Of a DNA stretch of 27,383 bases, positions 20,516 to 27,208 are shown one piece after another; the stretch's first letter is position 1; every line of letters begins with the position of its first letter. Source of the stretch: an uncultured Ureaplasma sp. (lineage in GTDB: Bacteria; Bacillota_I; Bacilli_A; Mycoplasmatales; Mycoplasmoidaceae). Below the pieces are notes generated by a model. The model did no database searches. It saw only the letters and a list, made by a program, of their open reading frames with translations, and was not told the DNA's origin. The stretch is from positions 1 through 27,383 of the forward strand of contig CACZNK010000037.1 of NCBI GenBank assembly GCA_902782585.1. The letters are read 5' to 3'. Both the position numbers and the translations under genes were made by a program.

Positions 20516-21070
20516 ATGAATATTATAACTAAAATAATTTCTTTAAGTTTGTTATTATCTTCATTACCAATATGTACTATATTGACATCATGTAGTTGCA
20601 GTTCACATAATCAAGAATTTAATAATCTATTTTATGGTGAAAAAACTCCAGAAATTAATAAAAAAAATAGAAAAGAAGCTATGTTAATAGCTTCTAAACA
20701 TTTTGAAGAACAATGAAGTGTTACTAATTATGGAACCACTATTAAAGAAGAAATTTTTAATAGCGAAATTAAACCTAAAATAATTACTTGTTATGAATAC
20801 TATTGGAATATAATCTATTATTTTGCAAGTATTTGTAATAACAACACCTATCAAATTGTTAATTGAAACTCTAATAAAAGTGAAGAATTGACAATCAAAT
20901 TTGATATTGAATTAAAATATCCTGATGGTAATCATATATTATTAGCTAAAGAATCTAATCAATTTGAATATAGTTTTGATGAAAATGGTGTGATTACAAT
21001 AACTCTTGATAATGATGATAAGTACACTATACCATCATATAAAGGAAGTTATATTAAAGTAATAAAATAA
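20516..21070 (+). CDS. Putative lipoprotein, hypothetical (184 aa)
   Basis: Signal peptide with lipobox-like ILTS-C(SC); two track ORFs join through TGA; starts directly after the rpsT stop. Confidence 0.75.
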
Positions 21071-22039
21071 TTATTTCACAACAACTTTTGTTGCTTGTCT
21101 ACGCTTTAGTATTTTTACAATTATTCAAATTAAAAATGCAATTGTTATTACAGTAGCAAAAAAGATTATTGCATCACGTTTGTTTTTTGCTTTTTTAATA
21201 TTAGTAATTTCATTAGGATCAATTAGCATGTAATTATAAAAGTTTTCAATGTTCGCAGCACGCAAATAATTCGATATCAATATTCACATATGTGTACCAA
21301 ATGTAGCAACAGCTAATGAAATTGTTGTCCAAAACAATACCATATATGTGTACTGATTATCTTTATCAATAGGTGTATTAAAATCAGCAAAACTAGTTTT
21401 ATAAATAAAAATTGGTAACAAACTATTAATCAAGACAGTTAGTAAAGATATAACATATATACCACTACAAAGTCAATTAACATCAATATAGCTAGTTTTT
21501 AGTTTACGGTATATTTTTTGAATATTTGAAGATAAAACCTTTTCATCACGGAAATTAATAGTTTTAGCTTCAGTATAAAAATTCTTATATCTATTAATTG
21601 AAAATATGAATTTTGGGAATATTAATATAAATATAGGAATTAAAAACAGTAGAATATATGGATTAACATTGTTTTTTCATTGAGTTAGAATTAGTGATGC
21701 TAAAACAATTGTCCCAATAACAAATAGTGAGAACAATCCGATATATGTGAATGCAACTAATTTAGCAAATGAAAGCTCTTTCAAATAAAATTTTGGAATG
21801 TATGAGTAATACATGTTATATTTTTGTAATTTAGATTCTTTTTTAGCATTTTGGAGTTTATATTTACCAAAAAAATCACTATTTGCATAAATAGCATCTT
21901 GATGATTAATTTTTAATGTATTGATTTGATGAGTTGTTAAATTTTCGAATCTTTCTTCGGGTTTAATAAAAAGACTTTCATCTTCTTCAATATTCATGTT
22001 TTTAAATGATATGGTTTTGGTTTCTAAATTGTTTCCCAT
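21071..22039 (-). CDS. Conserved mollicute multi-pass membrane protein (322 aa; possibly MSC_0882-like)
   Basis: No TAA/TAG in frame from ATG 22039 to 21071. About five hydrophobic segments and a basic C-terminus. Family name tentative. Confidence 0.7.
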
Positions 22040-22110
22040 ATAGCAATTCCTATATATTATATTATTATAAAAATCAAGTAACTATGGAGCAAAGTGCTAA
22101 AAATTAACTT

Positions 22111-22132
22111 TTTTAAGATTTTACTCTATTTT
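22111..22132. repeat. Copy 2 of the dispersed 22-bp element (TTTTAAGATTTTACTCTATTTT), overlapping the plsY stop codon
   Basis: 20/22 identical to 455-476, same orientation. Confidence 0.55.
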
Positions 22133-22890
22133 TGATTAATAATAATTGTTCTTTCATTACCATCTTTGATTTTTTTAATATTTGATTTATGTCGATATAA
22201 AACTATTGAAGCACTTAAAATCATAATGCAAAATAAAATAGCAAATAATATTAAATGTTTAGAATAAGGACTTTCATTTACAAAATTTAATGTGTTACCA
22301 AATAAACTATTACCAAACAAATATATTAAATCTAATTGTTTTATAAAAACAAAAAATGGACTAACCAAAGTGCATAACATTGAACCTAATGATACATATC
22401 TTGATGATGCTACAACTATAACTCATATACTAAATGTAATTAATGCAATATATGGACTAATAGCAGCAATAATTCCTCCTGTAGTCATCATTCCTTTACC
22501 ACCGATTCATTTAGATTTGTCTTTATCCTTAAAGTTAATTAAAAACATAATTGGAAAGCAATGTCCAATAGTTGTAAATAATCCAGATATAAAGATTAAA
22601 GAATATAAATTATGATTAGTTGGAAATCATTTACCAATGCTAAATAAATAGATGCATCAACAGCAAACAATTGCTATATATGATTTAGCACCATCTAAAA
22701 ACATTACACATATCCCATATCCTTTTCCAAATACTCTCATAGAATTAGTACCACCAACATTACCACTACCTATATTACGTACATTTTTCTTTAGAAAAAT
22801 AGAAAAGATATCACCAAATAGGATGTTACCAAACAAATACCCAATAATAATAAATGAAAGTGTAACTAATGATGAATAAAGAATTAACAT
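22126..22890 (-). CDS. plsY: Glycerol-3-phosphate 1-O-acyltransferase PlsY (254 aa)
   Basis: Joined under code 4. GSGNVGGTNSMR, DGAKSY, GHCFP, GGKGMTT; SD-like AAGGA upstream. Confidence 0.94.
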
Positions 22891-23879
22891 TGTTTTTCCT
22901 TTTTTGTAATTAAATCAATACGTTTCATATGTCTTGCATTCTTTGAATCTTTAGGATCAAATTTCGAATTAATAAAATTATTAATAATTTTAATATTATT
23001 TTCTAATGTATTAAATCTTCCACTTAATGTTATTACATTACAATTATTATGTTCTTTAGCAAGTTTTGCCAATTTGTAATCATATAAGCATATTGCCCTA
23101 ATACCTTTAATTTTATTAGCAGCAATACACATGCCATAACCCGTACCGCATATTAGTATACCTAAAGCATTAGTTGTTTTAATTACAGCATCAGCTACTT
23201 TAAAAGCATATATAGGGTAATCAACTGATTTAATAGAATTGTTAGTTCCTAAATCTTTGAAACAATATTTTTTATTTAATTTTGCAATAATTTGTTTTTT
23301 CATAGCAAAACCTGCATGATCTGAACCAATGAAAATTAATGGTTTTAGTTGTTTCATAATTTCATTACCATTATATTTACCTTCTCTAATTATTTTAAAA
23401 TTATCAAGGTCAATTATTGTAGAAGGTATATTAGATTTAGTTTTACCTTTAATAATTATTAATTCTGATAAGTGATTTTTAAATATTTTATAAGCATCAT
23501 TAGCATCTTTGATTGGGTTGTTTCCTGAAATATTAGCACTTGATGAATATATTGGACCAGTTAATTTTATTAATGATAATAATTTGGAATTATTAGGAAT
23601 TCGGTATGAAATTTTATTCTTGATAATTGTTAAACCACCAGGTCAATATTTCGAAATTATTTTTTTCTCTCATTTATTTAAACCTTTTACTTGATTAATA
23701 CTGTTAATAAAGAAGATTAGTTTCTTATTGCTTGGTCGTTGTTTTATTTGATAAATAAGTTTAGGATTTAATGACATTAAACCCATAACCGTATCAGTTT
23801 CAACAATTGCAGCAAATTTTTTGGTTTTAAGTAATTTAGCTATTAGCTTTTTTTGATCAAATGAATATTTTTTGACCAT
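22884..23879 (-). CDS. tsaC-rpiB: Fusion of threonylcarbamoyl-AMP synthase (TsaC/YrdC domain) and ribose-5-phosphate isomerase B (331 aa)
   Basis: Checked codon by codon: only TGA (23670, 23643), no TAA/TAG, between ATG 23879 and the RpiB part. TsaC motifs ETDTVMGL, KQRP, YWPGGLT, SYRIP, SSSANISG, PSTIID, IIREG. RpiB motifs GSDHAG, VDYP, CGTGYG, ANKIKGIRA, HNNCN, RH. Confidence 0.9.
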
Positions 23880-23885
23880 ATTAAA

Positions 23886-24515
23886 TTAATTATTTTTTTT
23901 GTCAGGTTGTTTTGGCAAATTAAAATTAACTTTAAATCTATGTAATAATTCGATAGCAATGCGTTCATTTAACATAATTTGACGAACACTTTCAAATTTG
24001 TTGGTATCATTTAATATGTCACGAATTGGCATATTAGTTTTTTGATAATAATTATCTAGTGATTTTTTGACATCTTGATCAGTGATTCGAATATCCCATA
24101 TTTTTGCTAATTCATTAAATAATAAATTACGTTTTAATGTTGTGGTAGCTATATCTTGAAGTGTTTTATCATCTGAAACCATTTTTTTCATAGTCTCATT
24201 TGACATATTTTCATTTTTATCATTTAAAACATTATTTTTAATTCTATCTGCAAAAGATTTAACATCATCATTGTTAATATTAATATCAAAGTGTTTATAA
24301 ATTCCTTGGATAATCAAATCAACTGAATTATTTCTTGCCACAATATTAGCAACTTGTTTATCAATATTTTCTGCAGTTTCATTAGGCATAATTTCTTTGA
24401 TTTTCTTTCTTTGAAATTCAACAAAATTCTTATCTGCTTGTAGTCTATTTAATTCAAATTCTTGACTATAATCAATTTCACTATTCTTTTTAATTGTAGA
24501 TTTTAATTTTTCCAT
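23886..24515 (-). CDS. Trigger-factor C-terminal-domain-like chaperone (MG377/MPN555 family, 209 aa)
   Basis: ATG 24515 with a strong SD (GAAAGGGG). Helical, ending DVKKSLDNYYQKTNMPIRDILND...FESVRQIMLNER. Family recognised from memory. Confidence 0.7.
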   Translation of the reverse strand: MEKLKSTIKKNSEIDYSQEFELNRLQADKNFVEFQRKKIKEIMPNETAENIDKQVANIVARNNSVDLIIQGIYKHFDININNDDVKSFADRIKNNVLNDKNENMSNETMKKMVSDDKTLQDIATTTLKRNLLFNELAKIWDIRITDQDVKKSLDNYYQKTNMPIRDILNDTNKFESVRQIMLNERIAIELLHRFKVNFNLPKQPDKKNN

Positions 24516-24574
24516 ATTTTCCCCTTTCAAATTGTTTGGATAACTACATCTTATATAATCATTATATAAAAAAA

Positions 24575-24600
24575 TTAGCACTCAATAAAAAGAGTGCTAA
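24575..24600. promoter_or_regulatory. CIRCE-like HrcA operator with an 8-nt spacer; may also act as the ffh terminator
   Basis: TTAGCACTC-AATAAAAA-GAGTGCTAA: both consensus arms are perfect but the spacer is N8, not N9. On the - strand it is followed by a T7 run and then TATAAT (24561-24566). Confidence 0.75.
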
Positions 24601-24625
24601 ATATTTAAATTATATATTGTTTGCA

Positions 24626-25963
24626 TTAATGCATAAATTTTGAAAATGGATTAACTCCTCGTCGTAGTTGTTTACCAACTTCTTCCATTTGTTTACGCAT
24701 TTTTTCTCATTGATTAAGTAATTTATTTAATTCATCAGGTTTTCTACCTGACCCTTTAATAACCCTTTCTTTTCTTGATGGTTGTCTTTTAAAAAGATGG
24801 GGATTTTTTCTTTCATTATTTGTCATAGAACTTAATAATATCCCTCAAATTTTAATTTTATCTTCTGCAGAATCAATATCATTTTCTGCAATATTTTGCA
24901 TTGTAGGCATCATCTTAATGATTGAACTTAATGAACCAAGTTTCTTTAGTTGATTCATTTGAATCATTAAATCTTCTAAATCCATTTTACCTGTAAACAT
25001 TTTGGTTAATGATTTTTTTGTTTGTGCTTCATCAATAATATCACAAGCTTTTTCAGACAATGTCATAATATCACCAAGACCAATAATTCTGTCAGCCATT
25101 CTTTCAGGATAAAAAATATCTAATGAACCTAATTTTTCACCACTACCAGTTAACTTAACTGGAACATTTAGTAAATGAGTAAGACTTAATGCTACTCCAG
25201 CTCTAGCATCAGAATCAAGTTTAGTAATAATAAATCCACTAAGATTTAAGGTATTGTTAAATTCTTTAGCAACGTTAATCATATCTTGTCCGGCCATTGA
25301 GTCAACAACTAGAAGGATTTCATCCGGATGAATAGTATCACGAATATTTACTAATTCATTCATTAATTGTTGATTAGTTTGTAATCGTCCTGCAGTATCA
25401 AAAATAATAACATCATTGTTATTAGTCTTAGCAAACTGCAATGCTTCCTTTGCTGTAATAGTTGGATTTTGATTACCTTTTTGATAAAAATCAACATTTG
25501 CCTGTTTAGATAATGTGTTTAATTGATCAATAGCAGCTGGTCGATATATATCAAGAGCAACCAACAATGGTTTTGATTGATTTTTTGATTTTGTATAGTT
25601 AGCAATTTTACCTGCCGTAGTAGTTTTACCGCTTCCTTGAAGACCAACTAACATTATTTTTAATGGTTTCTTGTTATAATCAATTGGTGCATTTTTTGAA
25701 CCTAATATTTTTGTTAATTCATCTTTGATGATAGTTAGCATATATTGTTGAGGATCCATACCTTGTGGTACCATTTGGTCAATAGATTGTTGTCGAATGT
25801 TTTTTATAAAATCTTTTACAACTAATAAATTAACATCAGCTTCAAGAAGACTAATACGAATTTGTTTTAATAATTCTGTAATATCTTCTTCTTTGATGTA
25901 CATGTCATTTAGTTTCTTTGACATGTGTTTTGTAATAATATTAGATATAAATGATTTCAACAT
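24626..25963 (-). CDS. ffh: Signal recognition particle protein Ffh (445 aa)
   Basis: LLEADVN, GLQGSGKTT, DIYRPAA, DTAGRL, TKLDSDARAG, FYPERMADRIIGLGD. The M-domain SMTNNERKNP...GSG is recovered by reading through TGA 24845. Confidence 0.98.
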
Positions 25964-25966
25964 TAT

Positions 25967-27208
25967 CTATTTTCAATTAATTAAAAAGTAATTCTTTTTA
26001 CCTTTTTTAATATATGAGAATTTATTTTGAATTGCATCAGCTCGATTAACAATAAAATCAATATTATCAATCAATTTATTATTAATGAAAATTGATTTTC
26101 CTTGAATTAATTGCCTTGCTTGTGATTTAGATTCACATACATTTAATAAAATTAAAATATCCAAAATATTATATTGATCTTCATTGGCATCAATTTTTGG
26201 CATACCATTTAAAACAACTAATAAATCTTCATTACTTAGTTCATCAATTTTTCCACTGAAAAACATTTCAGATAATTTGATACATTTTTCAGCTTCTGTT
26301 TCACCATGTATATCGCTAACAATAGTTTTAGCTAAAATTTTTTGTCCATATCTAAGTGATTTATTTTCATTGTGTTTTTTAATAATCTCTTTAATTTCAT
26401 CAACAGAAATGAATGTTAATGTTAATAATAATTTTTCTACATCAGTATCAGCTTGGTTAATTAAAAATTGATACATTAAATATGGAGAAGTAATTTTAGG
26501 ATCTAAATAAATTGCTCCAGATTCAGATTTACCAAATTTCGTTCCATCAGATTTAGTTAATAAATTAACTGTCATACCAAATGATTTATTATTGTCATTT
26601 GTTTTTTTTCTTATGAAATCTACCCCATTTGTTATATTACCTCATTGATCACTACCGCCAATTTGTAATGCAACATTATAATCAACATATAATTTATAAA
26701 AATCATAAGATTGAATTAATGTATATGAAAATTCGGCAAAACTAATACCAACTTCAAGTCTTTTTGAAACAATTTCTTTTTCTAGCATCGAATTTACATT
26801 GAAATATTTACCAACATCTCTTAAAAAATCAAGCATATCCATGCCTTTGTAAAATTCATAATTATCAATAATTTTTGCTCCAATTATTTTTTTAATTTGC
26901 GTGTTAATACATTTAATATTGTCTTTAATAGTATCAATATCTAAAAGTTTACGCTCATTTTTTTTACCTGATGGATCACCAATTCTTCCTGTTGCTCCAC
27001 CAATAATAGCATAAGTAGGATATCCAGCATTAATAAATCTTTTTAGTGTAACTAACATTAAATAATTTCCTAAATGTAATGATTTAAAACTAGGATCAAA
27101 TCCACAATATAATCCCCATTTTTTAGAACTAACAAATTCATTAGCTTTATCAATGTTTGTTATGTTATTTAAAACTTTTCGCACTTTTAGTTCATCAAAA
27201 ATATCCAT
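25967..27208 (-). CDS. tyrS: Tyrosine--tRNA ligase (413 aa)
   Basis: YCGFDPSFKSLHLGN, GGATGRIGDPSG, QIGGSDQWGN, KFGKS, C-terminal S4 domain; true stop TAG 25967-25969. Confidence 0.98.

Follow-up and report, generated by a model that had tools for sequence, protein, structure and literature searches.

A tsaC-rpiB fusion gene in an uncultured Ureaplasma sp. and its probable origin from neighbouring genes

The fused reading frame and its surroundings

The window, meaning the whole stretch of DNA analysed here (27,383 nt of contig CACZNK010000037.1 from an uncultured Ureaplasma sp.), carries on its reverse strand one open frame in which a TsaC domain is followed by an RpiB domain. The features of the locus are as follows:

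22126..22890, (-): plsY (PF02660), the downstream gene, whose ATG overlaps the stop codon of the fusion gene
22884..23879, (-): tsaC::rpiB fusion gene, 331 codons and a terminal TAA under table 4, with Pfam domains PF01300 and PF02502
22887..23342, (-): RpiB domain, residues 180-331, with D187-H188, C244-x-T246, H277-N278 and R316-H317-x-x-R320, and a 5-residue insert at 308-312
23340..23345, (-): fusion junction K179-P180, where the last TsaC helix is followed by the first RpiB strand, linker absent
23343..23879, (-): TsaC domain (YrdC-type, type 1), residues 1-179, with TDT at 28-30 and the KRSN residues K46/R48/S114/N116, no SUA5 domain
23355-23357, (-): ATG of M175, the RpiB start under table 11, within the C-terminal helix of TsaC
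23643..23645, (-): TGA encoding Trp79 of the WPG motif, which is conserved in TsaC
23670-23672, (-): second in-frame TGA, encoding W70
23886..24581, (-): upstream gene, product resembling the trigger factor C-terminal domain, with the stop codon 6 nt before the fusion ATG

Translated with table 4, positions 22884-23879 (-) yielded a single 331-aa ORF containing two in-frame TGA codons (W70 and W79), whereas table 11 gave two fragments, an N-terminal one of 69 aa and another of 157 aa that begins at ATG 23357. Three observations support code 4 well: W79 lies in the conserved WPG motif, TGA outnumbers TGG by 90 codons to 24 in the window's 30 long ORFs (at 24% GC), and the neighbouring genes ffh and plsY likewise require TGA to be read as tryptophan. 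Pfam searches identified PF01300 (Sua5/YciO/YrdC) at residues 25-167 (E 1.8e-22, 80.2 bits, gathering cut-off 25.1) and PF02502 (LacAB_rpiB) at residues 182-322 (E 1.3e-44, 152 bits, cut-off 24.7). An initial annotation of this DNA had proposed that under code 4 the YrdC/TsaC domain runs into RpiB without a stop, and the table 4 translation and both Pfam domains bore this out. It had also described the fusion as hidden by the wrong genetic code, which was true only of the ORF track used for that first reading: public annotation already reads the complete frame with the correct code, since nr contains an identical 331-aa protein and the family of the window's protein appears there as the 331-aa MBP5256919.1, [quoted passage not shown]. 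In its own MAG assembly (549 kb, 71 contigs, 79% complete), the fusion protein was the sole match to itself.

The window has no phosphatase gene separating tsaC from rpiB. The overlap of the plsY start with the fusion stop (ATGTTAA) suggests that the two genes are probably co-transcribed and translationally coupled.

As the window belongs to a 71-contig MAG, we considered an assembly or sequencing artefact, through loss of a stop codon or chimeric joining, and nothing was found in its favour. Support for the junction was assessed on Logan assembled contigs rather than raw reads. Positions 22700-24100 were covered by a 25.7-kb contig from run X1, and 22978-24048 by one of 1,071 nt from run X5, which belongs to a different study; both contigs were free of gaps. 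Five variants separated these contigs from the window within the ORF, all synonymous or missense, with no indels or stops at the junction. The region 23340-23400, singled out earlier for a check of read support, was thus crossed by contigs (not reads) of two other studies without a stop or gap. Additionally, the same 90% cluster included 331-aa members from NCBI, ENA and Logan assemblies, and orthologous fusions were present in seven other species genomes. These results effectively refute an artefact.

The stretch was detected in 19 listed runs from 11 studies, which were gut or bovine gut metagenomes where the organism was labelled. Run X3 gave no contig over the locus although its share of the sampled index words was 0.88, so this may be a false blank. 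None of the runs listed was an RNA run covering the locus, and the only run labelled as a metatranscriptome gave one 157-nt contig, located upstream of the fusion gene.

The two halves and their junction

The KRSN tetrad, which distinguishes TsaC from its paralogue YciO (PMC4615747), was complete in the fusion protein (K46, R48, S114, N116). In a 17-sequence alignment of fused proteins, K46, R48 and S114 were invariant and N116 was at least 90% conserved. The TsaC half scored 78.1 bits against the NCBIfam equivalog TIGR00057, below the cut-off of 123.2, and the TsaC half of another mycoplasma fusion (P0031) scored much the same (79.4 bits). Sequence matches of this half in the PDB were the TsaC2/Sua5 structures 9d3h and 6f87. 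Pfam detected no SUA5 domain C-terminal to PF01300 and placed PF02502 there instead, so the protein is not a TsaC2/Sua5 of type 2. The TsaC half is a predicted threonylcarbamoyl-AMP synthase, a role supported by context: the protein had no other match in the 79%-complete MAG, and TsaD was present there together with a 191-aa frame that also matched the TsaD family and was taken as TsaB. For TsaE there were only weak P-loop matches, and TsaE has been lost in some mycoplasmas (PMC4615747).

In the RpiB half, the active-site residues D187, H188, C244, T246, H277, N278, R316, H317 and R320, whose roles have been described (PMC3755991), aligned with those of 6mu0 and 1o1x. This half passed the RpiB subfamily model NF004051 of NCBIfam (158.5 bits, cut-off 135) and TIGR00689 (157.3 bits, cut-off 88.3) and missed the stricter equivalog TIGR01120 (122.6 bits vs 138.65). 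It is assigned to RpiB rather than to LacA or LacB, because the LacA/LacB equivalog models scored only 49-93 bits, far under their cut-offs of 164-325, and because the best match was M. genitalium RpiB (6mu0; sequence E 7e-34, 46% identity, fold TM 0.90). No RpiA was found in the 79%-complete MAG, in which the RpiB half was the only ribose-5-phosphate isomerase found; transketolase and PRPP synthetase were both present. Like stand-alone RpiB (6mu0, and the dimers or tetramers 1nn4, 1usl and 1o1x), the fused half possesses the Asp-His, Cys-x-Thr, His-Asn and Arg-His-x-x-Arg elements; it differs in that its first strand directly follows a 179-residue TsaC and in the insert before Arg316. We rejected this insert as an adaptation to fusion, given that the split RpiB of a congener (G012) also has it and the fused protein of another (G034) is without it.

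The AF2 model (mean pLDDT 94, pTM 0.76) placed a helix at 171-178 directly before a strand at 181-186, which leaves effectively no linker at the junction. Alignment to the TsaC C-termini and RpiB N-termini of split congeners gave the same placement. The stretch of the protein that spans the junction reads ...EIMKQLKPLIFIGSDH.... The earlier claim that the RpiB start of the ORF track (ATG 23357) falls inside the last YrdC helix, with the RpiB strand next, agrees with both the alignment and the model; the junction peptide quoted with it was correct, and the catalytic motifs that had looked intact in both halves were confirmed by alignment of all TsaC and RpiB active-site residues. When TsaC (1-179) and RpiB (180-331) were submitted as separate chains, complex prediction returned a score of 0.00 in a run with controls absent, a result that weighs on neither side of the question of an interface.

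The internal methionine raises a second possibility, namely that the frame yields two products, with RpiB made separately from ATG 23357 (M175) by an internal start of transcription or translation. Initiation at M175 would give MKQLKPLIFIGSDH..., which resembles a normal RpiB N-terminus, and a promoter-like match (TTTAAA-18-TATAAT) lies just upstream at 23399..23370. The genes of this organism show no clear Shine-Dalgarno sequences, which makes sequence no guide to internal starts. However, M175 is not conserved: the column holds Ile or Val in relatives, with Val in G003 and G019 and Ile in G017. The codons forming TATAAT differ in G022 (TATCAA), and a promoter scan of the region returned 46 promoter-like matches against 46.9 expected, which is the level of chance. 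Moreover, the full-length frame is open in eight species, with or without an internal product. We therefore regard separate production of RpiB as very unlikely.

Distribution among congeners and origin of the fusion

We surveyed 41 species genomes of the genus, a gut-dwelling one of the Mycoplasmataceae. The fusion was present in eight of them (G000, G022, G003, G019, G017, G034, G061 and G064), while another eight (G001, G012, G021, G007, G035, G013, G004 and G062) carried adjacent, separate genes, tsaC and then rpiB. The two genes were unlinked in G029, G028 and G006, and several congeners, among them G008 and G036 with single-contig genomes, had a stand-alone TsaC of ~180 aa with rpiB not adjoining. 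Two genomes that appeared to be fused (G001 and G051) were rejected, as the match spanned both halves but contained TAA/TAG stops, which marks split genes. In split genomes, the tsaC stop overlapped or abutted the rpiB start, and in G012 the overlap was 13 nt, with the genes in different frames. Since the two genes touch or share only a few bases, one small change, loss of the tsaC stop by a point change or small indel, would suffice to join them. The fused gene thus descends from neighbouring genes.

In a maximum likelihood tree of the concatenated halves, the fused sequences of the genus and the split G012 formed a clade with support of 99/99. The best tree placed the fused rows in a group of their own, with weak support (69/51), and made the split G012 their nearest relative. 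A single origin of the fusion in a subclade of the genus is most likely on this tree, as the simplest reading rather than a proven one. Within the fused clade, there was no linker in G000, G022, G003 and G019, a linker of a few residues in G017, G034 and G061, and one of ~18 residues in G064, which still shows the former RpiB Met; from this comparison the linker-free state looks derived. Identity among the fused orthologues was 52-79% for the TsaC half and 53-82% for the RpiB half (G000 vs G017: 52% and 61%, respectively). Across the whole tree, at least four state changes were required, two of which were forced by well-supported branches alone.

The same architecture was also found outside the genus. 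A word-indexed search gave ~25 clusters at 90% identity that contained both PF01300 and PF02502, down to 31% identity, and phmmer gave at least 21 clusters at 50% identity with both families among the best 150 hits. The fusion was also present in six gut MAGs of RF39 type that use code 11, including Candidatus Enteromonas sp., MGYG-HGUT-00664 and UMGS1337 (labels: Ca. Enteromonas, Bacilli, Mollicutes), and in the RF39-type MAGs the fused gene followed prfA-prmC (prfA-prmC-[tsaC-rpiB]). An Anaerolineae MAG encoded a protein of the same architecture, HUW12661.1, annotated as "ribose 5-phosphate isomerase B". Loci of Dehalococcoidia, Actinomycetes and Omnitrophota that seemed to span both halves proved on inspection to be adjacent separate genes. 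The novelty suggested in the initial annotation is refuted by these occurrences and by the nr entry: the architecture is common in databases and undescribed in the open-access papers searched, among which no relevant paper on a TsaC-RpiB fusion was found.

RpiB was fused to other partners as well, namely a LMW phosphatase (YwlE-type), SHMT (GlyA), UPRTase (Upp), dCTP deaminase and a second RpiB, and one protein (P0131) was a triple PrmC-TsaC-RpiB fusion. The Bacillus-type gene order is prfA-prmC-ywlC(tsaC)-ywlE-ywlF(rpiB)-glyA-upp, and the gene contexts observed here agreed with an order of prfA-prmC-tsaC-ywlE-rpiB-glyA-upp. Because most fusion partners of RpiB are its neighbours in this prfA...upp region, fusion of neighbours is the best explanation. 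The LMW-phosphatase-RpiB fusions similarly join members of the ywlC-ywlE-rpiB-glyA neighbourhood and differ in the domain pairing. A comparable case is the documented HemK(PrmC)/TsaC fusion of Mycoplasma genitalium, MG259 (Thiaville et al. 2015, PMC4615747). In both proteins a single-domain mollicute TsaC without SUA5 is fused to a neighbour in the prfA-prmC-tsaC-...-rpiB order, but PrmC is N-terminal to TsaC in MG259, whereas RpiB is C-terminal to it here.

Function of the fused protein and the question of coupling

We assign a probability of about 80% to a genuine bifunctional gene that arose by fusion of adjacent, co-oriented tsaC and rpiB. Loss of the tsaC stop codon, by a point change or small indel, would have joined the abutting genes. 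The first fused form would have had a short linker, sometimes retaining the old RpiB Met, and the linker would later have been trimmed to zero in the group of G000, G022, G003 and G019. Both enzymatic activities are expected. The N-terminal half would convert threonine, bicarbonate and ATP to threonylcarbamoyl-AMP for the TsaD/TsaB t6A machinery, and the C-terminal half would isomerise ribose-5-phosphate to and from ribulose-5-phosphate, serving the transketolase/PRPP-synthetase route. The two halves are expected to work independently. RpiB enzymes are dimers or tetramers whose active sites are built across subunits. The fusion protein would form an oligomer of RpiB type with one TsaC domain per subunit; in RpiB homodimers the two active sites lie at the subunit interface (PMC3755991), so assembly through the RpiB half is expected. 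The absence of cross-talk between the halves is a default assumption and not a result, because repeated independent fusion and long retention would also be expected under selection for coupling.

A separate code-4 mycoplasma lineage, represented by P0029, P0031 (from a bird-gut metagenome) and P0032, also carries the fusion. Among these three proteins, identity was 75-84% in the TsaC half and only 42-51% in the fused RpiB half, which has lost the Asp-His and Cys-x-Thr elements and kept His-Asp/Asn and GGRHExR. All three contigs additionally encode a stand-alone RpiB2 in a conserved sfsA-rpiB2-tdk-ychF-fba context. RpiB2 retains GGDHAS and CGSG, is without the His and the Arg-His-x-x-Arg, and has a long C-terminal tail. 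Coverage of the NCBIfam profile was limited to positions ~59-143 in the fused half and ~1-129 in RpiB2. In the LacAB heteromer, active-site residues are divided between LacA and LacB (PMC3755991), and the fused half and RpiB2 divide theirs in the same way. By this analogy, the pattern suggests an obligate heteromeric isomerase in this lineage, with TsaC attached to the LacA-like subunit. The wider proposition, that attachment of TsaC to the RpiB oligomer is under selection and that the LacA-like fused half and LacB-like RpiB2 form an obligate heteromer carrying the t6A starter enzyme, seems improbable to us. If it were true, there would be a real physical or regulatory link between the pentose phosphate route and t6A, and this would apply to the window's protein too. 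This lineage with complementary degenerate RpiB copies is the one piece that may be worth experimental work.

The fusion could instead have been selected for coupling, with RpiB replacing SUA5 as an oligomerisation scaffold for TsaC or as a sugar-phosphate sensor and thereby linking ribose-phosphate supply to t6A. The repeated fusion of this domain pair, at least four times on the tree (two of them forced by well-supported branches) and in several phyla, fits such selection, as does its retention within the genus clade down to ~52-57% identity. So does the other mycoplasma lineage, in which the fused RpiB half is kept despite loss of the catalytic Cys, Thr and His; that half appears complementary to the second RpiB, and TsaC stays attached after the copies have divided the active-site residues. 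The SUA5 domain is absent from mollicute TsaC, and Foldseek alignments to Sua5 extended over both halves. However, the superposition on Sua5/TsaC2 had an rmsd of 18-19 Å and a TM of 0.46, and only the TsaC half fitted. The fusion protein resembles Sua5/TsaC2 (S. tokodaii 2eqa/3aje, P. abyssi 6f87, T. maritima 9d3h) in having an alpha/beta domain of similar size C-terminal to TsaC, but this domain is an intact RpiB (PF02502) rather than SUA5, and the long inter-domain linker is absent here. Genomic evidence also argues against coupling: the single-contig genomes G008 and G036 manage with a TsaC of ~180 aa alone, rpiB not being adjacent; the genes are unlinked in the three species named above; and the linker ranges from 0 to ~18 residues and is not conserved. 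Furthermore, RpiB joins phosphatase, SHMT, UPRTase and dCTP deaminase equally readily, which fits adjacency better than a partnership specific to TsaC. Selection for coupling is thus unlikely in our judgement. The initial annotation had left the choice between fusion of neighbours and an RpiB that stands in for the SUA5 domain as scaffold or sensor; the split congeners and the tree upheld the former, and no support was found for the latter.

Under the preferred reading, a bifunctional gene derived from adjacent tsaC and rpiB, the fusion gives no grounds for a new connection of tRNA modification with sugar metabolism, and its practical value lies chiefly in annotation. Public records name such proteins by one half ("RpiB/LacA/LacB family isomerase", "ribose 5-phosphate isomerase B", "Sua5/YrdC family"), and as a consequence gene inventories can score tsaC or rpiB as missing in reduced genomes; the use of table 11 has the same effect. 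In evolutionary terms, the gene represents a further fusion of neighbours in the prfA-prmC-tsaC-(ywlE)-rpiB-glyA-upp region.

Gene order and transcription signals around the fusion gene

The start codon of plsY overlapped the TAA stop codon of the tsaC::rpiB fusion (ATGTTAA, window 22884-22890), and the trigger-factor-C-like gene ended 6 nt upstream of the ATG of the fusion. The tig-like gene, tsaC::rpiB and plsY look like a single tightly packed operon, an order unlike the prfA-prmC-tsaC context of other lineages.

Features flanking tsaC::rpiB and plsY
24575-24600, minus strand: terminator-like hairpin, 9-bp GC-containing stem TTAGCACTC...GAGTGCTAA followed by a T-run
23886-24581, minus strand: trigger-factor-C-like gene directly upstream of the fusion, product about 209-231 aa
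21071-22039, minus strand: predicted membrane protein of 322 aa, downstream of plsY

The hairpin and its T-run lay after ffh and formed the sole terminator-like site within window 21000-26200. The trigger-factor-C-like product matched the trigger factor C-terminal domain only (PF05698, E 1.8e-6), with neither a ribosome-binding domain nor a PPIase domain detected in it. The predicted membrane protein had no Pfam match.

Insert and partners of RpiB

The RpiB half carried a five-residue insert before its phosphate-binding Arg316.

22944-22958: insert DPKDS, residues 308-312 of the fusion

An insert at this position was common to most fused congeners and the split RpiB of the congener G012; the fused congener G034 and RpiBs outside the group were without it.

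Among public proteins, RpiB was fused to many partners, including a PrmC-TsaC-RpiB triple fusion (P0131, 626 aa), RpiB-SHMT (P0050), RpiB-UPRTase (P0081), dCTP deaminase-RpiB (P0226) and LMW phosphatase-RpiB (P0177).

Complementary RpiB halves in another mycoplasma lineage

Three contigs of a separate mycoplasma lineage encoded both a TsaC-fused RpiB and a stand-alone RpiB2.

TsaC-fused RpiB and stand-alone RpiB2, respectively
L025: 10001-10984 and 20307-20984
L115: 10001-10987 and 18002-18790
L116: 5473-6465 and 12277-12873

Active-site residue losses were complementary in these pairs: the fused half retained His-Asn and Arg-His-x-x-Arg, and RpiB2 retained Asp-His and Cys-Gly-Ser. This division matches that between LacA and LacB, and it suggests that in this lineage the fused half and RpiB2 may form an obligate heteromeric isomerase with TsaC attached.
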